The notes under the pieces: generated by a model
The model's input: only the letters and a program-made list of their open reading frames with translations
Databases searched by the model: none
What the model was told of the DNA's origin: nothing
Part shown: piece after piece, positions 7,005 to 17,243 of the stretch
Position numbering within the stretch: position 1 is the stretch's first letter
How the letters are laid out: every line of letters begins with the position of its first letter
Position numbers and translations under genes: made by a program
From: Candidatus Micrarchaeota archaeon
GTDB lineage: Archaea > Micrarchaeota > Micrarchaeia > Anstonellales > Bilamarchaeaceae
DNA length: 23,849 nt
NCBI GenBank assembly: GCA_037440825.1
Contig: JBBITJ010000001.1
Coordinates: forward strand, 39,828-63,676
Reading direction: 5' to 3'

Positions 7005-7730
7005 CTATTCGCGGGATTTTCCTGAGAGGCGTTCCACCTCCTTGGCGAGCTGCTCGACCTTCTGCCTGAGCTGGACAACCTCGCTGTCCACGCTTCCGAA
7101 GCGTTCTTCCAGCACGTCGTGGGCTAGAAGGTCTATCTTCTCCGCGCCTATGGGCACAATCCTTGATTTGAGATTCACGGTGGTGCTGTTGGGCGGCATG
7201 TCGGAAACGACAAGGGCTTCTGCGCCTATGCGGCAATTGTCTCCGATAGTCTTGGAGCCAAGCACCTTGGCGCCTGCGCCGATAACCACTCCGTTGCCTA
7301 TCGTGGGGTGCCTCTTGCCGGTCTCTTTTCCTGTTCCGCCGAGCGTTACGCCTTGGTAGATGAGCACGTCGTTCCCCACTTCCGAGGTTTCTCCAATCAC
7401 CACCCCTATGCCGTGGTCTATCACCACCCGACGGCCGATCTTCGCGCCCGGGTGTATCTCTATGTGGGTGAGCATCTTCACAAGATGGGACATTATCCTC
7501 GCGGTGTTATACCATTTCTTTTCATAGAGCCTGTGGATGAGCCTGTGGAGCGTGAGCGCCTGCAATCCCGGGTAAGTGAGCAGGATTGTGAATGCGTTCA
7601 GGTTGTTCGCAGCAGGATCTTTCTCCCTTATTGCTTCTATATCCTCCTTCATCCTCCTGAAGAAGCCCAGCCTCTGCCCATTTCCTTCAGAACCTGAAAC
7701 GCGCCTAGTTTCCATATTTTTTTGAACCAT
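7005..7730 (-). CDS. cysE: Serine O-acetyltransferase
   Basis: DPAA...YPGL.A..LHR, EIHPGAKIG, IDHG.GVVIGET, QGVTLGGTGKE.GKRHPTIG, GAGAKVLG; C-terminal coiled coil; SD AGGTG upstream of ATG 7730. Confidence 0.95.
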   Translation of the reverse strand: MVQKNMETRRVSGSEGNGQRLGFFRRMKEDIEAIREKDPAANNLNAFTILLTYPGLQALTLHRLIHRLYEKKWYNTARIMSHLVKMLTHIEIHPGAKIGRRVVIDHGIGVVIGETSEVGNDVLIYQGVTLGGTGKETGKRHPTIGNGVVIGAGAKVLGSKTIGDNCRIGAEALVVSDMPPNSTTVNLKSRIVPIGAEKIDLLAHDVLEERFGSVDSEVVQLRQKVEQLAKEVERLSGKSRE

Positions 7731-7784
7731 GAATGCCACCTTTTGATTTTTACGACTTGAAATTACCGCTAAAACTAAAAGTTT

Positions 7785-7853
7785 TCAACAAAGGCAGCGG
7801 CAACAAGGCAAGCTGGCTGAAATAGAATAAGAGCGTACTATCGTGCCTTGCAT
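7785..7853 (-). CDS. Cys-rich leader peptide MQGTIVRSYSISASLPCCRCLC (candidate cysteine attenuator)
   Basis: 22 codons, 4 of the last 6 Cys (TGT TGC CGC TGC CTT TGT TGA). The stop is 54 nt upstream of cysE and the ATG is 31 nt from the first base of a TATA box. Confidence 0.75.
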   Translation of the reverse strand: MQGTIVRSYSISASLPCCRCLC

Positions 7854-7876
7854 GGTTCTAATTATGTGCTAAAGAG

Positions 7877-7884
7877 TTTTTAAA
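7877..7884 (-). promoter_or_regulatory. TATA box for the Cys leader/cysE transcript
   Basis: TTTAAAAA on the minus strand; the spacing places the TSS at or near the leader ATG (7853). Confidence 0.6.
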
Positions 7885-7905
7885 TGTGAGTTTAGGAAAA
7901 GAAAC

Positions 7906-7933
7906 CAAACTGAAGACTGGAAACGGAAAACCG
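7906..7933 (+). repeat. 7-bp tandem array (4 units)
   Basis: CAAACTG AAGACTG GAAACGG AAAACCG. Confidence 0.7.
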
Positions 7934-7966
7934 CAAAGTGCTTCAAAAATGGAAATAAGGAGAAAA

Positions 7967-8602
7967 TCAGATAGCCAGTACCCACTTCACATATCCGGGC
8001 GTCTCGCTCTTCGGAGCGCCTACATACTCGAAGTAAATGTCGAACTGGTTCTGGTCCTTGGGAAGCTGGACTGCGACCCAGCCGCTCACCGTGGCTCCTG
8101 GCTCTATGGGCTGGCTGAAATCCAGCTCAGGAGAGAATTTTGCATTCACGGCCATCGCGGAGCTGGTCTGGAATTTCAGACCCTTGCCCATCGCGTAGAT
8201 CTGCGGCGTCAAGATCTTAGCCTCGGTTCCGCTGTTGGTTACCTGGAAGTAAAGGAGGAGGTAGTTGGAGCTTGCTCCTGCGCTGAAATCCACGTTCGCG
8301 AGCGAGATGCCGTAGGATTCAGTTCCGTAGGTCACTGATTCCGCCTGCCCCAGCCTGCCGTTCTCTATTACGGTAGGAGGCTCTGCCGGAGTCACGTTCA
8401 CAGGCCAGTTCGTGACGTTGGCACCTGTCTGATTCGTCTGGTTCGTAACGTTCACGCCGGTCCCGTTGGTCTGGTTTGCTCCGTTGGTCTGGTTTGCTAT
8501 GTTTCCGCCGGGCGTGACGTTTTCCTCCGTTCCGCCTGGAACTATTACGCAGCCGGAGAACAATATGAGAGCCATGAAGCCGAGAATTATCTGCATCCGC
8601 AT
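7967..8602 (-). CDS. Lipoprotein with N-glycosylation-sequon-rich linker and C-terminal Ig-like (DUF4352-like) domain
   Basis: Signal peptide ending in lipobox LFSGC; repeated NQT/NVT/NGT sequons; V.N.G...I.PG.T.SGWV pattern; SD GGTGA before ATG 8602. The longer ORF-track start runs through the tRNA gene. Confidence 0.75.
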   Translation of the reverse strand: MRMQIILGFMALILFSGCVIVPGGTEENVTPGGNIANQTNGANQTNGTGVNVTNQTNQTGANVTNWPVNVTPAEPPTVIENGRLGQAESVTYGTESYGISLANVDFSAGASSNYLLLYFQVTNSGTEAKILTPQIYAMGKGLKFQTSSAMAVNAKFSPELDFSQPIEPGATVSGWVAVQLPKDQNQFDIYFEYVGAPKSETPGYVKWVLAI

Positions 8603-8676
8603 GATTTCACCTGCCCCATACTCCGATAAGAGATTTAAAAAATTTATGCAGGATGACTGAGAAAGAAGATGCATTG

Positions 8677-8712
8677 CAAACTCTGAACGCGAAACAGAAA
8701 ACTGGAAACTGA
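8677..8712 (+). repeat. 7-bp tandem array (5 units) directly 3' of tRNA-Phe
   Basis: CAAACTC TGAACGC GAAACAG AAAACTG GAAACTG; 8689-8712 matches the reverse complement of 353-376 at 23/24 positions. Confidence 0.8.
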
Positions 8713-8715
8713 TAT

Positions 8716-8788
8716 TGCCACGGGCGGGATTTGAACCTGCGACCCTCCGGTCTTCAGCCGGATGCTCTCCCAACTGAGCTACCGTGGC
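8716..8788 (-). tRNA. tRNA-Phe (anticodon GAA), intronless, CCA not encoded
   Basis: Reverse complement GCCACGGTAGCTCAGTTGGGAGAGCATCCGGCTGAAGACCGGAGGGTCGCAGGTTCAAATCCCGCCCGTGGCA; anticodon loop CTGAAGA; one A-C mismatch in the T-stem. Confidence 0.96.
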
Positions 8789-8980
8789 AGTAGCTAGGAT
8801 TAGTGAAAGGAACTATGCTGTGATGTTTTTTAATTGTTTTCTATTCCAGAAGGCTGAAAACGTTCAATTCTATGCCTCCGGTTTTCTCCAATTCGCCCGC
8901 CAGCTCTGCCTCCATGCATCGCACTAGGTAGTCGCCGTTGTAGGAATGTATGCAGAACTGGAAACGACCATGCGCCCGCC

Positions 8981-10159
8981 CTATGGCTGCAACCACTCTA
9001 TCTCGTAATGCTCGTAGTCGCTCCCCGGAATCTCTATCCGCTTGACCGCATAGTAGGTGACGCTGCTCTCCCTGTCCGCGATTGCGAGCAGCACTTCCAA
9101 CCCGTAGTGCTTCGCCTCGAAAAGCGCTTCCGCGAGCTCCTCTCCCCCCAGGTATTCATCTTCTGAAAGCGAATACATCAAAAAGCGGGGCTGCCCTTCC
9201 TTGGGAGTCTCTATTCCGCCTTTTTTGCGGTGGTAGAGCAGGAAATCCAGCCTGGGCTTCTTCGCATTCACCTTGATGTCCAGCTTCTTGCCCGGAATCG
9301 CTAGTATGAACGTCTTCTTCACCGAGTGCGCGACGCGGATGGCGCGCGACCACTCGGAAATGAGCATCTTGCTCCTGCGCGGGAAGATGTGCACCACGTG
9401 CTTGGAATGCACCCATTCGTTGTTCTCCTTCACCGGCGAGGCGCCGGGGAAATATATCCTGAAATGCGTCCCGAACTTGAAACCTGTTTTCAATACGTAG
9501 CCCTTGTCCCTCCAGTCATCGTAGACCGAGTACATGTCCTCGAAGTACTTTATGCGGTCTTCGGCCTCCTTCCAGATTTCCCCGAGCTCCGCGTTCTTCA
9601 ATTTGAGGTTGCCGTGCTTGAGCAGGTAGATGGTCTCATAGATGTCCAGCTTCGCGATCTTGCCGCGATGCGCCGCCTTGTAGGTGCCGAACTGGCCGAG
9701 CCAGTATTTCTCGTACAGCTCCTTTCCGCTCGCCTCGTCGTCTATAATGGTGATGAGGTCGTCCATGAAGAACACTCCTTGGAGCGCGTAGGCGTCTATC
9801 TTGAATTTTCCTCCGCTATAGCGCTTTGCTGCCGCGTGGCCGTAATTCCCCTTCACCTCGGTGCTCGGCCTGGACACCAGCCCGCGGTCGCGCCAGTCCT
9901 TGAACGTGAGGTAGCGCGCGAGCAGCTTCTTCCTTTTCAGGAAAAGGGATGCGAGGTCGTTGAACGTGTACGGGTTGCCGGATTCATCCACGCACGTGGC
10001 GTTCCTTATGTCCATCATGTAGAGCGCTTCCTCTGGCTCGAGGTAAATTATGCCTTTCCGCATCTCGCCGTAGAATCCGTTCTGCAAAGAGCTCACGTCC
10101 GCTGGCTCCTTCACGCATATTTCCCCTGATTTCCTTTCCAGATAGAGTGTAATTCCCAT
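8981..10159 (-). CDS. endA: tRNA-intron lyase (splicing endonuclease), probably three-unit epsilon2 type
   Basis: L...EALY, DWR..G, KTGFKFGTHFRIY (catalytic Tyr), ..HSKH, RVAHSVKK (catalytic Lys); 392 aa; central loop GQFGTYKAAH. Confidence 0.92.
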   Translation of the reverse strand: MGITLYLERKSGEICVKEPADVSSLQNGFYGEMRKGIIYLEPEEALYMMDIRNATCVDESGNPYTFNDLASLFLKRKKLLARYLTFKDWRDRGLVSRPSTEVKGNYGHAAAKRYSGGKFKIDAYALQGVFFMDDLITIIDDEASGKELYEKYWLGQFGTYKAAHRGKIAKLDIYETIYLLKHGNLKLKNAELGEIWKEAEDRIKYFEDMYSVYDDWRDKGYVLKTGFKFGTHFRIYFPGASPVKENNEWVHSKHVVHIFPRRSKMLISEWSRAIRVAHSVKKTFILAIPGKKLDIKVNAKKPRLDFLLYHRKKGGIETPKEGQPRFLMYSLSEDEYLGGEELAEALFEAKHYGLEVLLAIADRESSVTYYAVKRIEIPGSDYEHYEIEWLQP

Positions 10160-10235
10160 TGCTTCACCTTGTTATTTTGGGTACAGCGCCCATGAAAAAA
10201 TCGGGCAATAAAATATCTCGGACTGGGTTTAAAAA

Positions 10236-11024
10236 TCAGAGGAATTTCTCCAGTCCCGGCTTGACTGCCATGCCGTCCTTCGCGGCGATGGTGCGCACCC
10301 CGCTCTCCTTCTCTATCCTCGCGGCCTCCTTCTCCGGGCCTTCGCGCAACATCTTCATGCCCATGTGGGTGAGTATCGCGAGCTTCGGCTTTGCGACCCT
10401 GAGCAGCTCGATCGTCTCGGCGGAGGTGAAATGCCCGAGGTACTCGTCCTTCTCGGGCTTCATCGTGTTCACTATCAGCCAGTCGCATCCCTTGTACTGT
10501 TCGTAAAGGCCGTCGAAATATTCCGTGTCGCTCGTGTACCCTACTGTGAGCCCGTCCATTGAGAGCTTGAACCCGAATGTGGTCTCTTCCTCGTGCTCAG
10601 CCTTCAGGATCTCGATTTCAAACGAGCCTTTTTCATTGGAGAATTTCCTCTTCTCCCCCCACTTCGCAGCATAAACCTCTTTCACTTTCGAAAGGTGGTA
10701 ATGGGTGAAGCCCATGTCGCCTTTTTCGTCGCCTTCCACCGCATTTTTGCTGCCGATTACGATGCCTTTTTTCTTCAGTGTGTACGAGGTCATGGCCTCC
10801 ACGAGCACGTTCGCGTCGGTGCAGTGGTCTATGTGCAGGTGCGTCACTATTATCGCGTCCAGGTGCATCGGGCTCTGCTTCATCTGCAGCCCGTGGATGA
10901 GCGCTCCGGGCCCAGGATCAACGTGTATGCTGAGGGAGCCGTTTATCCTGAACCCTCCGGTCCAGCGCCTCTGCTGTACGAGGTTCACGCGGCCGCCGCC
11001 AGTACCCAAGAAAACGATTTCCAT
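10236..11024 (-). CDS. Metallo-beta-lactamase-fold hydrolase (RNase Z-like superfamily)
   Basis: FLGTGGG, VDPGPG, THLHIDH (HxHxDH), YTSDT, GH, LTH motifs; SD GGTGGTG upstream of ATG 11024. Confidence 0.9.
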   Translation of the reverse strand: MEIVFLGTGGGRVNLVQQRRWTGGFRINGSLSIHVDPGPGALIHGLQMKQSPMHLDAIIVTHLHIDHCTDANVLVEAMTSYTLKKKGIVIGSKNAVEGDEKGDMGFTHYHLSKVKEVYAAKWGEKRKFSNEKGSFEIEILKAEHEEETTFGFKLSMDGLTVGYTSDTEYFDGLYEQYKGCDWLIVNTMKPEKDEYLGHFTSAETIELLRVAKPKLAILTHMGMKMLREGPEKEAARIEKESGVRTIAAKDGMAVKPGLEKFL

Positions 11025-11042
11025 GCTTGCCAGCACCACCGG

Positions 11043-11070
11043 CTTTCCGGTTCAGCGTTCCCTGTTTCGC
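11043..11070 (-). repeat. 7-bp tandem array (4 units)
   Basis: Minus strand: GCGAAAC AGGGAAC GCTGAAC CGGAAAG. Confidence 0.6.
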
Positions 11071-11159
11071 CTGTAGAATTTATCAATCCAACCTGTCGGA
11101 TTCGACCTTCGTGTTTCTGTCCTCTATTTTCCGCGCGCTCTTCAAGAGTGGCCATACCA

Positions 11160-12176
11160 TCATCCCTTGCTCCTCAGCTCCTCAATCATCCTGCAATGCA
11201 TGCATATGCGCGCTCGCGCATCCTCCAGCCCTTCGCGGGGAGCGGAGGCTGGCTCTCCGCACAAAGTGCAATGCGAGATTTCCAGCTTCTCCGGCAGCCC
11301 CTTGCGCATGAGCTTCTCCATCTCGATGAACGAGGCGAGGATGCGCATTTTCGTGCCCGGATATTTCTCCTCGGTGTCGTTCAATTGCGTCTTCACATGC
11401 TGCCTGAACGAGAAGTGCGCGTACGGGCACTCGGAATAGTGGATGCCAATGCCGCGCAGCAGCGCGTATATCGCGACTTCCTTCTCATAGGTGCGCATCA
11501 AGGGGCGGATGCGGGGAATTAGGTGCGCATCCTCGGAAAGCGGTTCCAGGAAGCGCGCGAGCCGCGCGGGCTCGTTCCTCATCATGTTCATGAGCACGGT
11601 TTGCGCCACGTCGTCAAGGTTGTGCCCTATGGCAATCTTGTGCGCCTTCGCTTCGCGCGCGCCCTTGTTCAGGAGATAGCGGCGGAAGACGCCGCACCAG
11701 CTGCACGCCGAAGTTCCTGTCCTTTTCATCATTTCGTCCAGCGTGAGCCCTGAGTCGGCCTTGAACGTCATGACCTTGAGCGGGACCTTGAGCTGCCTGC
11801 ATGCCGCCTTCGCGACCTTTAGCGTGGCCGGGCGGTAGCCCTTCACCCCCTCGTCTATCGTTATCGCCACGAGCTCGAAGGGCAGCCTCTTCCTCATCTT
11901 GGAGAGAAGATGGAGCATCACCACGCTGTCCTTCCCCCCGGAGAGCCCGACCGCCACCCGGTCTCCCGGCTTTATCATAGAGAATTCGCGGACCGTGCGC
12001 ATGAACCTCTTCTCGAAATAGGCAATGAAGCAGCCCGCGCAGAGGTGGCGTGCAGCGTAAGCCAGATGGACCGCGGCCGGCTTTCCGCATGAGGAACATG
12101 GCGGTTTTCTGTTCCGGGTTTTGTGTTTCGTGCCAGGAATTCCGGAACTGGAAACCGAAGACTGGAAACCATGCAT
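11160..12176 (-). CDS. tRNA 2-thiolation protein, TtuA/NcsA (Ncs6) family PP-loop ATPase
   Basis: N-terminal CxxC..CxxC/H zinc finger, PP-loop SGGKDS, CSWCGVFRR, GHNLDD, ECPY, C-terminal CxxCGEP..CxxC. Confidence 0.92.
   Translation of the reverse strand: MHGFQSSVSSSGIPGTKHKTRNRKPPCSSCGKPAAVHLAYAARHLCAGCFIAYFEKRFMRTVREFSMIKPGDRVAVGLSGGKDSVVMLHLLSKMRKRLPFELVAITIDEGVKGYRPATLKVAKAACRQLKVPLKVMTFKADSGLTLDEMMKRTGTSACSWCGVFRRYLLNKGAREAKAHKIAIGHNLDDVAQTVLMNMMRNEPARLARFLEPLSEDAHLIPRIRPLMRTYEKEVAIYALLRGIGIHYSECPYAHFSFRQHVKTQLNDTEEKYPGTKMRILASFIEMEKLMRKGLPEKLEISHCTLCGEPASAPREGLEDARARICMHCRMIEELRSKG
12104..12171. repeat. Inverted pair of 7-bp tandem arrays (4 + 4 units) inside the ttuA-like 5' end
   Basis: GTTTTCT GTTCCGG GTTTTGT GTTTCGT [GCCAGGAATTCC] GGAACTG GAAACCG AAGACTG GAAACCA. 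Confidence 0.8.
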
Positions 12177-12185
12177 ACGGATTTA

Positions 12186-12430
12186 ATGCCGAATAGCGCT
12201 TAAATCATTATGGACACGCGAACAACTGCCCATGCAAAAGGGACTCGGAGGCTTCGCGGATTTCGTGGAGCGGTGCAGGGAAACCGGAGCCCTGGTTGTC
12301 TACACTGGGCATGCGTCGCTGGGCAAAGGGACAGAGGACTGGCACATGCATGAAGCATTCGATGCCAAGGCAGGAGACATGGTTCTGGATGGAGATGATG
12401 GGGCAAGGCAATTCGGACCAGATACCCCTT
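12186..12430 (+). pseudogene. Possible decayed isochorismatase/cysteine-hydrolase gene fragment
   Basis: MPNSA*IIMD (in-frame TAA at 12201), then in another frame FVERCRETGALVVYTGH..LGKGTEDWHMHEAFDAKAGDMVL. This resembles the ALLIIDMQ...ARxxGxPVI...GTxGWxI..L.P..GD.V pattern, judged by eye. Confidence 0.35.
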
Positions 12431-12622
12431 TTAGCCGCCAAAGACTACTTTTATCACTTCAACCTGGTCTTTGCCGCCAACTTCCGAATCTTCCGGAACC
12501 AGCGCTCCGTTGACCTTCACGAGCGCTTCCTCGCGCTGCACGCCGAGCTTCCTGAGGAGCTCTGAAACCGTCCCACGGCTGAATGCGCACTTCTTCCTGA
12601 CGCCGTCCACCTTCACGATCAT
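12431..12622 (-). CDS. ThiS/MoaD-family ubiquitin-like sulfur carrier (SAMP-like)
   Basis: 63 aa, TVSELL..LG, VKVNG..VPED, C-terminal VVFGG diglycine; upstream of the ttuA homologue on the same strand. Confidence 0.88.
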   Translation of the reverse strand: MIVKVDGVRKKCAFSRGTVSELLRKLGVQREEALVKVNGALVPEDSEVGGKDQVEVIKVVFGG

Positions 12623-12671
12623 GGGTTATTAATCATCTCATACATTTATATAGTTTGGAAGATGATGAAAA

Positions 12672-12776
12672 ATGATGCACCCCCAGGACAATACGCACAC
12701 GATAATACGCATTGCAGCCGCGGCAATGGTTGCGCTCCTGGTAGTGCTGGTCATCGCGGCAGTAGTGCTGAAGTGA
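12672..12776 (+). CDS. Small single-TM peptide (34 aa)
   Basis: MMHPQDNTHTIIRIAAAAMVALLVVLVIAAVVLK*; TATA TTTATATA at 12645-12652, 27 nt before the ATG. Confidence 0.45.
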   Translation: MMHPQDNTHTIIRIAAAAMVALLVVLVIAAVVLK

Positions 12777-12824
12777 CGGCAGGTATTTAAAGTTCACCCA
12801 TGAGAGCATCCATGGTGCTGGAGT

Positions 12825-13067
12825 ATGGCGAAAGAAAACAGAACCGGAAACAGGGGACGCGAGACTTCGCGCGGGCAGGGTTCCACTGAATACCTCGTAG
12901 TCCTCGTTGTCGTACTCGTGATAGCGGTCATAGTGATCGCGCTCCTCGGAGGATTCACGCCTTTCGACCAGAGCTCCGTGGTGGAGCAGAGCCAGACATA
13001 CTGGCAAGGAGCCACTCCTTTTTCTATCGAGGAGAGCATGATAGTGACTGAGAACGTCACGGAATGA
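12825..13067 (+). CDS. Class III signal peptide (archaeal pilin-like) protein, possibly truncated
   Basis: RG|QGSTEYL followed by a ~20-residue hydrophobic helix and QSQTYW; only 80 aa. The basic region is encoded by a heptamer array (12840-12867). Confidence 0.7.
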   Translation: MAKENRTGNRGRETSRGQGSTEYLVVLVVVLVIAVIVIALLGGFTPFDQSSVVEQSQTYWQGATPFSIEESMIVTENVTE

Positions 13068-13080
13068 CTTAGTTGATCTT

Positions 13081-14046
13081 ATGCAGGACAGCGAATTGCT
13101 TCCATGGACTGAGAAGTACCGCCCGCGGAAGCTGGAGGAGGTCGCGGGCCAGGAAGAGATACTAAAGACCCTCGTGGCGTTCGTGAAGGCAAGGAACATG
13201 CCCAACATGCTCTTTGCTGGTCCGCCCGGAGTGGGAAAAACCACGGCTGCCATAGCGCTGGCGCACGAGCTCTACGGCAAGAACGTGAAGGGCAATCTGC
13301 TCGAATTGAACGCTTCTGATGAAAGGGGAATAGACATCGTCAGAGGTAAGATAAAGGATTTCGCGCGCAGCATCGCGATAGGGGATGTGCCTTTCAAGCT
13401 CATATTCCTGGACGAGGCGGATGCGCTCACTCCGGACGCGCAGCACGCGCTCAGGCGCACGATGGAGCTGTGTTCGAGCGTCACCAGGTTCATACTCAGC
13501 TGCAACTATTCATCCAAGATAATAGAACCCATACAGAGCAGGACCGCGATATTCAGGTTCCTCAAGCTCAACGAGAAGGACGTGAAAAGAACATTGGAGC
13601 ACATAGCGAAGTCGGAAGGGCTGAAGATGGACGAAGAGGCTTACGCCGCCCTTTACTATGTTTCCGAAGGGGACATGAGGAAATGCGTGAACGTGATGCA
13701 GGGTGCAGCCATACATTCCAAGCACATAACCAAGGACCTCGTGTACAAGATTTCCGCGCGCGCTGAGCCCAAAGAAGTGCGGGAGATGATGGAACTCTCG
13801 CTTGCAGGGAAGTTCGCGGACGCGAGGAAAAAGCTGGACGAGCTCATAGTGAACTACGGGCTCTCTGGAGAAGACATAATACTCCAGATGTACAGGGAAG
13901 TGGACAATTTGAAGGTGGAGGAGAAGAGGAAGGTCGAGCTCATAGACCGCATAGGCGAATACAATTTCAGGCTCGTGGAAGGCGCGAACGAAAGGATACA
14001 GGTCGAAGCCCTGCTCGCGCAGATAATGCTCATGGGCAAGCAGTAG
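13081..14046 (+). CDS. rfcS: Replication factor C small subunit
   Basis: PWTEKYRP, GPPGVGKTT, ELNASDERGI, FLDEAD, AQHALRRTME, SKIIEPIQSR. Confidence 0.97.
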   Translation: MQDSELLPWTEKYRPRKLEEVAGQEEILKTLVAFVKARNMPNMLFAGPPGVGKTTAAIALAHELYGKNVKGNLLELNASDERGIDIVRGKIKDFARSIAIGDVPFKLIFLDEADALTPDAQHALRRTMELCSSVTRFILSCNYSSKIIEPIQSRTAIFRFLKLNEKDVKRTLEHIAKSEGLKMDEEAYAALYYVSEGDMRKCVNVMQGAAIHSKHITKDLVYKISARAEPKEVREMMELSLAGKFADARKKLDELIVNYGLSGEDIILQMYREVDNLKVEEKRKVELIDRIGEYNFRLVEGANERIQVEALLAQIMLMGKQ

Positions 14047-14063
14047 AATTTTCCACTAATGGG

Positions 14064-14285
14064 ATGTGCGCGTTACAAGGCGCGGCCCGGAAGCCGAGCG
14101 CAACTCACTACCGCACAGTTTCGGAGATCTCCTGGGGCTCAAAAACTCGGCTGCGACGCGCTTTTCCGGGAAACAGCCAGAATTTCAGGGGTGGATTAGA
14201 CGTGTTCTCTGCAGAGGAATTCGAAGCCCTGGCCGGAGTCTGGAATGTGGATGGAAGGATACTCCGCGGAAGCGGGATTGAAAAG
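14064..14285 (+). pseudogene. Possible decayed minimal-nucleotidyltransferase (MNT) gene fragment
   Basis: GSRA in one frame (14089-14100) and VSE..G...R...LDVFSAEEFE...GIE in another; weak by-eye resemblance only. Confidence 0.25.
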
Positions 14286-14307
14286 GAAGAAAAAATAAAT
14301 GCTGATA

Positions 14308-16203
14308 CTAGACGATCAGGCGGTCGCTCACGAGCTTCCCGAATGAAATGGGTTCGAAGGGCTTTGCCGCGGACTTCGCCTCGATCTCTGAAAGCACCTG
14401 CTCGAAAGCAAGTTCCTTCTTCTCTCCGGTCTCGCGCACCGTGACGGATAATTTGCCGCTCTCCATTTCCTTGTCGCCTATCACTGCGACGTAGGGGCAC
14501 CATTCCACTTCCCCTCTGCGTATCTTCTTTCCCAGCGTGTCGCCTGTGTCGTCCACGTCTATGCGCACCCGCCTTCCCTCTGCCTTCTTCTGCAGCTCCT
14601 TCGCGTACGCGAGGTGCTTCTCGCCTATGGGAATGAGGCGGAGCTGGGTGGGCGCGAGCCAGAGCGGGAATGCGCCTTTCTTGCCTTCCTTTATCCTCAT
14701 CGCCTCCTTTTCCAGAAGGGCGTAAACAACGCGCTCCAGGCTTCCGCTCAGGGACGCGTGGAGGATGTATGGGCGCTGCTTCTGCCCTTTCTCGTCAACG
14801 TAGTTTATGTCATAGGTATCTGCATTCTCCACGTCTATCTGCACAGTTCCGAGCGTGCTCGCCTTGTCCATCGCGTCTATGAAGTTGAACTCGAATTTCG
14901 TGATGAAGTAGGCGTAGCGCTCCTGGAACAATTCTATGAAGATCGGCTTGCCGATTTTCTTCACGAGCGAGACGTACCAGTCCTTGTTCTCGTTGAAGAA
15001 GTCCGCCTGCGCCCTGAACGCCACTTCTATCTGGTCGAAGCCCAGGTCTTTGTTCCATTCCAGCCCCTTGCCGAGCTGGCTGGCGAATTCCGTGCGCGCC
15101 TGCTCCATGCTTGCCACCATTGTGTGCATGTCCGGCATTGTGAATGCCCTGAGGCGCTTCAACCCTGCGAGCTCTCCGCCCTGCTCCCTCCTGAAAGAAT
15201 AGCGCGTGAGCTCGTATATCTTCATCGGAAGCTGCTTGTAGCTCAACGTGGAATCGTGGGAGATGAGGAACTGGCCGAAGCACGCGGCGAACCTCAGGAA
15301 GAACTTCTTCTCGTCCGAGATCACTACGTACTGCCTCGCAGGGAACCTGTTCAGGTACTTCTTGAGCGTGGGATGCTCTAAATCGTACATTATCGGAGTC
15401 TCGACCTCGTGTGCCCCGTAATTGATGCAGAAATCCGAGACTGCGCGCTCCAGTATCTTCTTCATCAGCCGTCCCTTGGGGTGCCACCTGAAGTTCCCTG
15501 AATCGCTTCCTGGCTCGTAGCCCACGAGCCCGTGCTCCATCATGAGCTTTATGTGCGGAGGCTCGACCTCGTACGAGCGCACCTTCTTCGTCTCGTAGAT
15601 GACCATCTTCTTGAGCCACGGGTATTTCGAGTAGTCGAATTTCTCGACGTCGTGCAGGTTTCCGTCCAGGTCCAGTATCTGGAACCTGCTCTTCATTTTT
15701 TCCTCGCTCTTAAGCGAAGCCGAGACCACTTCCTCCACTTTCGCCGGCTGCGGGGAGATGGGCGCCCCTTTCGCTTCTGATTCCAGCGCCGTTTTCAGCT
15801 CCCTGGAAAGCTCGCTCAGGGGGTGGCCCTTGCACTTGAGCGTATAGCCCTTGTACCAGCCGAAGGGCGAATGGTCGACGTTGTAGCCCATGGATTTGAG
15901 CTTCGCCTCGGTTTCGCGCACCACTTCGAGCGCCACTGCAGGGGAAGATGGCTTGGATGTGAGGTGCACCAGAGGATAAACCAGGACGTTCTGCGGCTTG
16001 ACCTGCTTCGCGACCTTGTCTATCTCCTCCGCGGCCTTTTTCGCGATCGCGTTGACGTCTTCGTCGCCCTGCTCCACGGATGTGAAGACTACGAGCACTT
16101 CCTCGTAGCGCTTCTTCTCCGGCTTGACCTCTTCCGCGGACTTGATCGCCTTCTGCTTCGGCTCCACTTCTATGTAGTCTGCGTGTATCGTCATTATTCG
16201 CAT
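14308..16203 (-). CDS. thrS: Threonine--tRNA ligase, archaeal type with N-terminal editing domain
   Basis: MRIMTIHADY, YP.VHL, PFGWYK...CKGHPLSELSR editing domain; LRFAACFGQF, FRREQ.GEL.GL.RLRAFTMPDMH, SG.SLER-type motif 3 region, PLWLAPTQ.R anticodon domain; SD GGTGA. Confidence 0.97.
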   Translation of the reverse strand: MRIMTIHADYIEVEPKQKAIKSAEEVKPEKKRYEEVLVVFTSVEQGDEDVNAIAKKAAEEIDKVAKQVKPQNVLVYPLVHLTSKPSSPAVALEVVRETEAKLKSMGYNVDHSPFGWYKGYTLKCKGHPLSELSRELKTALESEAKGAPISPQPAKVEEVVSASLKSEEKMKSRFQILDLDGNLHDVEKFDYSKYPWLKKMVIYETKKVRSYEVEPPHIKLMMEHGLVGYEPGSDSGNFRWHPKGRLMKKILERAVSDFCINYGAHEVETPIMYDLEHPTLKKYLNRFPARQYVVISDEKKFFLRFAACFGQFLISHDSTLSYKQLPMKIYELTRYSFRREQGGELAGLKRLRAFTMPDMHTMVASMEQARTEFASQLGKGLEWNKDLGFDQIEVAFRAQADFFNENKDWYVSLVKKIGKPIFIELFQERYAYFITKFEFNFIDAMDKASTLGTVQIDVENADTYDINYVDEKGQKQRPYILHASLSGSLERVVYALLEKEAMRIKEGKKGAFPLWLAPTQLRLIPIGEKHLAYAKELQKKAEGRRVRIDVDDTGDTLGKKIRRGEVEWCPYVAVIGDKEMESGKLSVTVRETGEKKELAFEQVLSEIEAKSAAKPFEPISFGKLVSDRLIV

Positions 16204-16302
16204 GTTTTCACCCTGGATGTTTTTTGCGGATTTTTTGAAAAGAACAGATATTCTTTTTTTCCGGATCGGGCGCGACCCGCCAAGCCGCGGCCGAAAGTAG
16301 AA
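16204..16302 (-). promoter_or_regulatory. Candidate attenuator region between the Thr leader and thrS
   Basis: GC hairpin CGGGTCG-CGCC-CGATCCG (16279-16262), and AU hairpin AAAAGAAT-ATCT-GTTCTTTT (16257-16238) containing a U-rich tract. Confidence 0.5.
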
Positions 16303-16359
16303 CTAGCAGGTGGTGGTCGTAGTGCCTCCGGTTGCGACTATTACGACGCTGGGATCCAT
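16303..16359 (-). CDS. Thr-rich leader peptide MDPSVVIVATGGTTTTTC (candidate threonine attenuator)
   Basis: 18 codons with 6 Thr, five consecutive (ACT ACG ACC ACC ACC). The stop is 99 nt upstream of thrS and the ATG is 29 nt from a TATA-like box. Confidence 0.85.
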   Translation of the reverse strand: MDPSVVIVATGGTTTTTC

Positions 16360-16380: not shown

Positions 16381-16389
16381 ATTTTTAAT
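16381..16389. promoter_or_regulatory. AT-rich TATA-like element, probably shared by the divergent Thr leader/thrS and endonuclease IV genes
   Basis: ATTTTTAAT lies about 26-29 nt from both ATG 16359 (minus) and ATG 16410 (plus). Confidence 0.5.
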
Positions 16390-16409
16390 GCAAATGGAGA
16401 AGCCCACCT

Positions 16410-17243
16410 ATGATCCGTTTCGGGCCTGCAGGCATTCCCATCCAATGCGAAGGAAGCAGCACTGTTGAGGGACTAGAGTGCTGCAAAAGGCTCGGTCTGG
16501 GCGCGATGGAAATGGAGTTCGTGCGCGGAGTGAATATGAAGGACGACTCCGCGAAGGAAGCGGGCAAGAAGGCGAAGGAGCTGGGCATTTCGATTTCCTC
16601 GCATGCGCCGTATTACGTGAATTTGTGCACCGGAGATAGAGTAAAGGCGGAAAACAGCAAAAGGCACATTTTCCTCGCCGCGAAAGCCACGTTTCTCGCC
16701 AACGGCAAAATCACGGTTCTCCATCCTGGGTTTTATCAGAAATTGGCGAAAGAAGAGGCGTTCCAGGCTGCTAAAAAACGGCTTATTGAACTGAAGGAAA
16801 AAATAGACGAAGCGAAAATTAAGTGCATCCTCGGAATGGAGACCGTGGGGAAGAAAAGCGCATTCGGAGGGTTTGAAGAAAATGTAAGGATGGCGCAGGA
16901 ACTCGATTTCGTCAAGCCGGTATTGGATTTCGCGCACCTACACGCGAGAAGGGATTTCCTCATCAAGGGCGAGGACGATTACATTAGGATATTTTCAATT
17001 CTGGACAGGGAGCTTCCCGGGTATACGAAGGATATCCAGTGCCATTTCTCCGAGATAAACTATAGTGAAAAGGGGGAGCTGAACCATCTCGTGCTCGGAA
17101 GCAACAGCGAGCCGCCCTACAAACCGCTCATGAAGGTGCTGGCTGAAAACGGGATTGGCGGCACAATTATTTGCGAAACGCCGAAGCTGGATTTGGATGC
17201 GTTAGTTATGCAGAAGGAGTATGAAAAGCGGCTCAAAGCCTAG
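16410..17243 (+). CDS. Endonuclease IV-family TIM-barrel protein (AP endonuclease 2)
   Basis: FGPAG.P, E.EFVRG, HAPYYVNL, VLHPGFY, ETVGK, DFAHLHAR, HFSEI...GE..H, ICETP. Confidence 0.88.
   Translation: MIRFGPAGIPIQCEGSSTVEGLECCKRLGLGAMEMEFVRGVNMKDDSAKEAGKKAKELGISISSHAPYYVNLCTGDRVKAENSKRHIFLAAKATFLANGKITVLHPGFYQKLAKEEAFQAAKKRLIELKEKIDEAKIKCILGMETVGKKSAFGGFEENVRMAQELDFVKPVLDFAHLHARRDFLIKGEDDYIRIFSILDRELPGYTKDIQCHFSEINYSEKGELNHLVLGSNSEPPYKPLMKVLAENGIGGTIICETPKLDLDALVMQKEYEKRLKA

Follow-up and report, generated by a model that had tools for sequence, protein, structure and literature searches.

Putative translated leader open reading frames with cognate codon runs upstream of thrS and cysE in a Micrarchaeota genome

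Introduction

The stretch of DNA analyzed here (the window; 23,849 nt of contig JBBITJ010000001.1 from Candidatus Micrarchaeota archaeon) is part of an 875-kb, 45-contig genome and harbors on its minus strand the genes thrS, encoding threonine--tRNA ligase, and cysE, encoding serine O-acetyltransferase. Each of them is preceded by a short open reading frame (ORF), here called Thr leader and Cys leader, which ends in a cluster of codons for threonine or cysteine, respectively, and is therefore cognate to the gene behind it. A preliminary description of the window, made from the sequence alone, had seen in this arrangement a general amino-acid sensor of a DPANN archaeon that works by ribosome-stalling attenuation. 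The host does belong to the Micrarchaeota and thus to the DPANN lineage. Here, we present a computational analysis of both leaders, including a genome-wide scan, comparisons between related genomes and RNA folding, which suggests that they are probably translated regulatory elements. The genome is labelled G000, its relatives G001 etc., and individual loci carry L-numbers; the related genomes are kin and hence not independent samples.

Results

Organization of the thrS and cysE loci

Both loci share one design, consisting of a TATA-like box, a leader ORF of 18 (Thr) or 22 (Cys) codons, a stop codon, a spacer of 99 or 54 nt, and a gene equipped with a Shine-Dalgarno (SD) sequence (Table 1); coordinates and lengths agree with the preliminary description. 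The thrS spacer contains a hairpin, an A tract, and a U-rich tract, and the A tract AAAAAAAGAA is able to form a weak A-U hairpin with UGUUCUUUUC. The cysE spacer contains two U4 tracts, followed by the SD sequence GGTGG. The U-rich tracts previously noted in the spacers are present at both loci, with a length of only U4. Four of the last seven codons of the Cys leader encode cysteine, the Cys-rich tail covering 7805..7788. The start of cysE was picked from the SD sequence and the ATG conserved between G000 and G004, which makes ATG 7730 the probable start, while the open frame extends to GTG 7739. At the Thr and Cys leaders, as well as at a Leu leader elsewhere in the genome, a distance of 21-26 nt separates the end of the TATA-like box from the leader ATG. 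This spacing and the conserved SD sites argue for a single transcript, which would comprise both the leader and the gene.

Table 1. Features of the leader-containing loci; positions refer to the window unless a genome label is given.
Feature	Position	Strand	Evidence or remark
TATA-like box ATTAAAAAT	16381..16389	-	ends 21 nt, starts 30 nt, before Thr-leader ATG (16359)
Thr leader ORF MDPSVVIVATGGTTTTTC-stop, 18 codons + stop	16303..16359	-	ends T-T-T-T-T-C-stop; stop 16305..16303
Thr run ACT ACG ACC ACC ACC (five consecutive codons)	16323..16309	-	sequence reading
Alternative helix, 5' strand: last Thr codon, Cys codon and stop	16303..16311	-	partner 16283..16275
Conserved hairpin, 10 nt past Thr-leader stop	16266..16294	-	RNAalifold, 12 pairs
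A tract AAAAAAAGAA, then U-rich tract UGUUCUUUUC (16246..16237)	16237..16260	-	sequence reading
thrS Shine-Dalgarno-like GGGTGA	16208..16213	-	thrS ATG at 16203
thrS, archaeal-type threonine--tRNA ligase with N-terminal editing domain	14308..16203	-	NCBIfam PRK03991 / NF003068, E 3.5e-237, residues 1-629 of 631
TATA-like box ATTTAAAAA	7877..7885	-	ends 23 nt before Cys-leader ATG (7853); no divergent gene shares the box
Cys leader ORF MQGTIVRSYSISASLPCCRCLC-stop, 22 codons + stop	7785..7853	-	ends C-C-R-C-L-C-stop; stop 7787..7785
Leader-closing helix: GCAAGGCA just after AUG with UGCCUUGU (Leu-Pro-Cys codons)	7803..7851	-	invariant in both sequences, hence no covariation test
Anti-SD segment GCUGCCUUU inside Cys-codon tail	7790..7798	-	pairs with 7743..7735, 9 bp
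cysE Shine-Dalgarno region AAAGGUGGC	7735..7743	-	conserved G000/G004
cysE, serine O-acetyltransferase	7005..7730	-	TIGR01172, E 3.4e-67, 225.5 bits (cut-off 210.65)
Leu leader MNASVRNSRQEIGNRTVSSAQLLLSLLLA-stop, tail ..SAQLLLSLLLA-stop	G000:C1:7384-7473 (L037:1307-1396), outside window		precedes LeuA-family gene G000:C1:7578-9299
Phe/Tyr leader MAMAKKMHGYFRFFFSFSYC-stop	G000:C18:2548-2610 (L061:242-304), outside window		TATA-aware scan; before DAHP synthase

Genome-wide enrichment of cognate leaders

Crude gene calling on the whole genome yielded 887 ORFs. In a blind scan, which ignored gene identity, 542 upstream regions were searched for ATG-started short ORFs (sORFs) of 8-45 codons, and those with at least four identical residues within the last seven codons were flagged. 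Among the 581 sORFs detected, 14 distinct ones were flagged, three of which are cognate to the gene behind them, namely Thr before thrS, Cys before cysE, and Leu before a LeuA-type gene. Random placement combined with a generous list of cognate genes gives an expectation of 0.048 cognate matches, and the probability of three or more is about 2e-5. The earlier judgment that such matches are unlikely by chance thus receives a genome-wide statistic. A second scan, which additionally required a TATA-like box at 20-29 nt, revealed a Phe/Tyr leader before the gene for DAHP synthase.

Short ORFs as such are common in this genome, as the 581 sORFs in 542 regions illustrate, and according to our own arithmetic a frame of 18 codons stays open by chance in about four of ten cases. 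The leaders might on these grounds be regarded as chance ORFs in promoter-proximal DNA or, alternatively, as genes for small functional peptides. Chance is excluded by the enrichment and by the conservation described below, and a functional peptide is at odds with the unconserved N-terminal residues of the leaders, in which only the cognate run and the surrounding RNA are kept. Both variants are therefore considered highly improbable.

Conservation of the Thr leader

The ThrRS gene was found in all 41 related genomes and 30 loci were inspected. In six of the eight loci from the genus (G000 included), an ORF of 16-19 codons lies at the same place before thrS; it is absent in G003 and G006. Five of these six leaders end in three to five Thr codons and a single codon for Cys or Tyr, and the sixth, from G005, ends in TTATTC. 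The peptides besides that of G000 are MENRPATYFAAARTTTTC, MNCRQVLPEAVAATTATTC, MYTGSFGSIGSTGNTTTC, MYGGSFGSIGSTGNTTTC, and ..KRITETTTY; their N-terminal two thirds have nothing in common while the Thr run is fixed. Among 49 metagenome loci with a ThrRS N-terminus and upstream DNA, a single one (L110) carries a leader, MPIATTTTTRSF-stop, which has the same hairpin apex behind it. The TATA-like box and its spacing are retained in the five other genus loci and in L110. One candidate, L017 (G022), was left out of the count; its MVFIKDLETTTTC is located 377 nt upstream of thrS, from which it is separated by a small gene.

The comparison with non-cognate residues, which had been proposed as a control, was made within the genus, where Thr is the sole residue clustering in sORFs before thrS (6/8). 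Over all 30 thrS loci, clusters of Thr occur six times and clusters of Phe and Ala once each.

In L002 (G004) and L005 (G001), a second small ORF of 19-20 codons is located between the Thr leader and thrS, and its stop codon overlaps the thrS SD sequence GGGTGA. Its start context resembles that of the thrS start in the relatives, and the start region may have been duplicated.

Competing RNA helices at the end of the Thr leader

RNA structure was analyzed in alignments of seven sequences, i.e. the six genus loci and L110. Helices were tested by the percentage of paired cells in comparison to slid partners and by a covariation score in comparison to 500 shuffles. The 12 pairs of the Thr hairpin are formed in 91.5% of the cells (26-45% when slid), six of them are changed on both sides, and none of the 500 shuffles reached the covariation score. 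A competing helix joins 16311..16303 with 16283..16275, the apex and the top of the 3' arm of the hairpin, and is paired in 88.9% of the cells (21-43% when slid). Three of its pairs are changed on both sides, as exemplified by ACC-UGC/GCGGGU vs ACU-UGC/GCAAGU, and 24 of 500 shuffles attained the score, so that support for this helix is moderate. As both helices need 16283..16275, they are mutually exclusive; a pseudoknot containing both was rejected by reasoning, with a connecting loop of 1-2 nt. The pairing also offers an explanation for why a Thr leader closes with a conserved Cys codon. In G000, the two helices are close in energy: in the minimum free energy structure the partner of the Thr run is the G-rich segment, and the centroid structure shows the hairpin.

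Covarying helices of this kind, found at the Thr, Cys, and aromatic leaders, are real and would also be expected from an untranslated structured RNA, either a protein-binding operator or a direct sensor of tRNA or a metabolite, with codon runs and open frames as by-products. For thrS, this might mean that ThrRS binds its own leader hairpin, as in E. coli, where ThrRS binds a tRNA-Thr-like hairpin beside the SD sequence of its mRNA. Pairing accounts for the terminal Cys codon, and in 7/7 sequences the apex of the hairpin retains a GGU or AGU triplet, corresponding to Thr anticodons. In the E. coli operator, however, the Thr anticodon is presented next to the SD sequence in a loop of 7 nt, whereas the loop found here measures 9-13 nt, is devoid of the flanking bases usual for anticodon loops, and is about 60 nt away from the SD sequence. 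Furthermore, pure RNA structure does not predict that four different leaders each match the residue of the downstream gene, nor that the frames remain open, share the register of an ATG located at TATA distance, and vary in length by whole codons. An Rfam scan at gathering scores (window, L061, L037) returned only two tRNAs and no match to a Thr, Leu, or Phe leader or to a T-box. An untranslated RNA is therefore an unlikely explanation of the leaders.

With regard to the output at thrS, masking of the SD sequence was dropped for this leader, as was done for the aromatic one, because the modelled effect was nil at thrS and tiny at the aromatic leader (0.47 vs 0.42). U tracts of 4-6 are found downstream of the hairpin in 7/7 Thr leaders. 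In G000, T runs of at least five occur in 3 of 558 coding windows and in 67 of 537 windows after stop codons, which makes them about 25 times rarer in coding sequence. U tracts are reported to be the archaeal terminator signal, acting with aCPSF1/FttA (PMC8716108, PMC11616081). The A-tract/U-tract element of the thrS spacer is a possible candidate for an archaeal termination signal, with only U4 at G000.

Two further observations concern termination in this genome. The beta-CASP ribonuclease encoded at G000:C24:2541-3854 matches aCPSF1 only from profile position 174 and hence is devoid of the KH domains; whether the genome also encodes a complete aCPSF1 is relevant to the termination model. 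In contig C6 (G000:C6), a hairpin directly followed by U6, CCGA..GCUUGGCGGCG..UCGG UUUUUU, lies about 200-240 nt ahead of carB. Its apex resembles that of the Thr-leader hairpin, and it probably serves as terminator for the adjacent gene.

Predicted masking of the cysE Shine-Dalgarno sequence by the Cys codons

The cysE gene is present in only five of the 41 relatives. In G004 it is preceded by the Cys leader MQGTINTANSAMPSLPCCCCLC; despite a different spacer sequence and an identity of only 57% between the CysE proteins, the box and its spacing are retained. The leader is absent before cysE in G005, G003, and G039; in the latter two, cysE directly follows another gene. In G005 (L033), the place immediately ahead of cysE, taken by the Cys leader in G000, is occupied by a tRNA-like gene, apparently interrupted by an insert. 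A contig end of G000 (G000:C40:2-586, L036) carries a second copy of cysE residues 50-244 with 100% identity, which is probably due to assembly redundancy.

RNA comparisons at this locus include the two sequences from G000 and G004. The anti-SD helix between the Cys-codon tail and the SD region shows one double change from U-A to C-G, in which a synonymous change from CUU to CUC in G004 is matched by a change from A to G in the SD region. The centroid structure includes this helix. Accessibility of the SD sequence was calculated with a partition-function model, with or without a ribosome placed on the leader. In free RNA, the modelled probability that the SD sequence is unpaired is 0.11 (G000) or 0.02 (G004), with a ribosome on the last seven codons it is 0.19-0.64, and with a ribosome at the leader stop it is 0.72 (G000) or 0.54 (G004). 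This evidence points to translational control of cysE, in which the Cys codons themselves would mask the ribosome-binding site.

The model opens the SD sequence for any ribosome at the leader end, a ribosome at the stop codon being no less effective in this than one positioned on the Cys codons. As a point against the sensor interpretation, these values would also fit plain translational coupling, in which the leaders are translated but the SD sequence is opened constitutively, whatever the amino-acid supply, and the runs are not sensors. Such coupling leaves unexplained why cognate runs occur at four loci (P ~2e-5) and why it is the run that is conserved within the peptide, and we consider it improbable.

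Leu and Phe/Tyr leaders in the same genome

The Leu leader is located between two adjacent LeuA-family paralogs. It was detected in seven of eight orthologous loci of the LeuA-type gene, which represent two families, one genome being from another family of the order; a search of genome contigs with the LeuA-type protein found one locus only. All Leu leaders end in an L-rich tail plus Ala or Gly. In 7/7 sequences the stop codon lies in the loop of a G+C stem of 5-6 bp, with one double change in G002. This hairpin was read directly; RNAalifold on the MAFFT alignment missed it, the loop lengths differing by 1 nt. In G000, the stem is GGCC/GGCC and a T6 tract follows about 50 nt beyond. In G021 and G250, the bases past the stem (CCACACC) pair with the SD sequence GGUGUGG.

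The gene behind the Phe/Tyr leader matches NF006421 (E 1.7e-131) and encodes DAHP synthase, which catalyzes the first step in the synthesis of aromatic amino acids. It is present in 34 of 99 family genomes, and 26 of the 30 loci inspected carry an aromatic leader, all 26 with an in-frame ATG and no stop. Their N-terminal parts have 14 different lengths, which always differ by whole codons. A hairpin is formed in 23/23 folded sequences, with a main stem of ~11-16 bp, the 5' arm on or just past the stop codon, and a U-rich tract in the loop. In 20 aligned sequences it is paired in 92.9% of the cells (34-61% when slid), and five of ten pairs are changed on both sides, a value reached by 3 of 500 shuffles; RNAalifold missed it on the long MAFFT alignment and it appeared after the segment had been cut out. 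A further helix of the aromatic leaders, between GUGGUU, before the leader ATG, and AACCAC, is paired in 86% and shows no both-sided change. Over 22 aligned genomes, the nucleotides coding for FFSFSY are almost invariant, which is more than codon identity requires.

The prediction that the codon clusters are conserved at orthologous loci is thus borne out for Thr (6/8), Leu (7/8), and the aromatic residues (26/30), and for Cys in G004.

Other observations in the genome and window

The annotation pass, which covers only the 305 crude genes with upstream regions of at least 75 nt and in which strict E-value cut-offs may have hidden genes, also returned an intein-containing RtcB, bacterial-type gyrase A and B, DnaK, and a match to the selenoneine sugar synthase SenB (G000:C12, C7, C17, C26, C44). 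In the window, the A/T-rich element at 16381-16410 lies at TATA distance both from the Thr leader on the minus strand and from a divergent gene on the plus strand, which is similar to xylose isomerase or Nfo and starts with ATG 16410; it may act as a bidirectional promoter.

Discussion

Given the observed anatomy, conservation, cognate enrichment, and competing helices, the Thr and Cys leaders are probably translated cis-regulatory ORFs by which the ribosome reads the supply of the cognate charged tRNA. Transcription would start at or beside the leader AUG and result in a leaderless mRNA. The ribosome would translate the leader and dwell on the Thr or Cys run when charged tRNA is scarce, and its position would decide which downstream RNA helix forms and thereby act on the downstream gene. 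A translated sensor is favoured over a small protein or a pure RNA element because it predicts both length changes by whole codons and the run as the sole conserved part of the peptide. None of the alternatives discussed above readily accounts for the fourfold cognate match or for the pattern of conservation.

At thrS, a ribosome located on the Thr run or on the stop codon would cover the 5' strand of the competing helix, so that the apex is freed and the full hairpin can form. Without a ribosome, the end of the Thr run could invade the hairpin. The hairpin state is presumably the ON state, which would raise expression, because homeostasis demands it. The likely output would be reduced termination at the A-tract/U-tract signal about 20 nt downstream.

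At cysE, ample Cys-tRNA would allow the ribosome to clear the tail fast, whereupon the tail re-pairs with the SD sequence. When Cys-tRNA is scarce, the ribosome would dwell on the UGU/UGC codons, themselves the masking strand, so that the SD sequence stays open and CysE is made. This scheme corresponds to translational attenuation; its pairing and geometry are taken from the analysis, and translation, stalling, and response are what we infer. In the model, the SD sequence is sequestered by a 9-bp helix and the stall site lies on the masking strand, as translational attenuation demands.

Several results weigh against this interpretation or narrow its scope. Among the 305 crude genes annotated, cognate leaders precede only four of about 14 amino-acid-specific genes with room upstream (those for ThrRS, CysE, the LeuA-type protein, and DAHP synthase); for the genes of AspRS, GluRS, PheRS alpha, HisRS, ProRS, DapA, ArgG, MetK, CarB, and SHMT, even relaxed criteria revealed no cognate sORF upstream. 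To speak of a general amino-acid sensor is therefore an overstatement. The Thr leader is nearly restricted to one genus, whose members are kin and not independent. A DNA search of 99 family genomes detected the Cys leader only in G000 and G004, seven further matches being limited to query bases 3-46, the A/T-rich promoter part. Since the Cys leader occurs in two close genomes only, the anti-SD helix has a single compensatory pair as its comparative support. The A/T element of the Thr leader lies ~22 nt before the divergent plus-strand gene starting at 16410 and may belong to that gene. Folding energies are no better than those of shuffles for most of the thrS leader (z -0.66; the fold began 10 nt inside the Thr ORF) and for the whole cysE leader (z +0.40), and the modelled accessibility of the thrS SD sequence is independent of the ribosome position on the leader. 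Finally, the thrS hairpin ends about 20 nt before the U4 tract, and no hairpin abuts a U tract as it does in an intrinsic terminator; at cysE the U tracts are only U4 and none of them abuts a hairpin either. This bacterial hallmark of hairpin plus U tract may be inapplicable to the archaeal RNA polymerase. Of the ribosome-stalling attenuation proposed initially, the sensor logic persists, i.e. cognate runs, open frames, and helices overlapping the codons, while the hairpin directly before a U tract that goes with premature termination of the bacterial type is not seen.

The proposed logic is that of bacterial leader-peptide attenuation. In ermC and cat translational attenuation, a ribosome stalled on a leader ORF frees a sequestered SD sequence, as is proposed here for cysE; there the stall is triggered by an antibiotic together with the nascent peptide, whereas the presumed trigger here is a shortage of charged tRNA. 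Enterobacterial leader peptides control transcription attenuation in the thr, leu, and pheA operons and, in the case of pheM, upstream of pheST. The leaders described here likewise are short ORFs in the 5' leader which end in a run cognate to the downstream gene, the thrS locus likewise has competing helices, one of which includes the regulatory codons, and as with pheM-pheST the gene behind the Thr leader encodes a tRNA ligase. Differences are the archaeal host, the TATA-box promoter, the leaderless-looking mRNA, the lack of any relationship by sequence or Rfam family, and, for both thrS and cysE, the lack of a G+C-rich hairpin that abuts a U tract. Termination in archaea also differs in its reported reliance on U tracts and aCPSF1/FttA (PMC8716108, PMC11616081).

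For cysE, the closest analogy is provided by the leaderless polycysteine sORFs of mycobacteria (the Cys "ribulon"), in which stalled ribosomes are reported to block structures that sequester the downstream ribosome-binding site (10.1101/834739). Common to both would be a leaderless poly-Cys sORF ahead of a gene of cysteine metabolism and, as inferred for cysE, unmasking of the SD sequence. The mycobacterial system is bacterial and mutation-tested, whereas the cysE leader is archaeal and known from two sequences, and in contrast to the mycobacterial sORFs its Cys-codon tail itself would be the masking strand. The view that such regulation is little known in archaea agrees with a full-text search, largely outside subscription journals, in which no published leader-peptide attenuation was found in archaea, including Micrarchaeota.

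If the interpretation is correct, archaeal ribosomes would act as amino-acid sensors, and the leaders would provide direct in vivo evidence for a regulatory use of transcription-translation coupling in archaea. They would provide short, defined, and portable test objects for this coupling and for U-tract/aCPSF1 termination. The leaders would also reveal which amino acids a host-dependent DPANN cell still monitors and makes, i.e. Thr charging, Cys, Leu, and the aromatic residues. Genome annotation would gain as well, as leaders of this size fall under the thresholds of gene callers. In its widest form, which we hold to be somewhat more probable than its opposite, the conclusion is that archaea have ribosome-read amino-acid gauges of their own and that no fewer than four (Thr, Cys, Leu, Phe/Tyr), based on leaderless mini-genes, operate in one tiny DPANN genome, with SD unmasking as the output at cysE and ribosome-controlled access to U-tract/aCPSF1 termination as the output at thrS, the LeuA-type gene, and the DAHP synthase gene. 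These leaders would then belong to an overlooked pan-archaeal layer of regulation.

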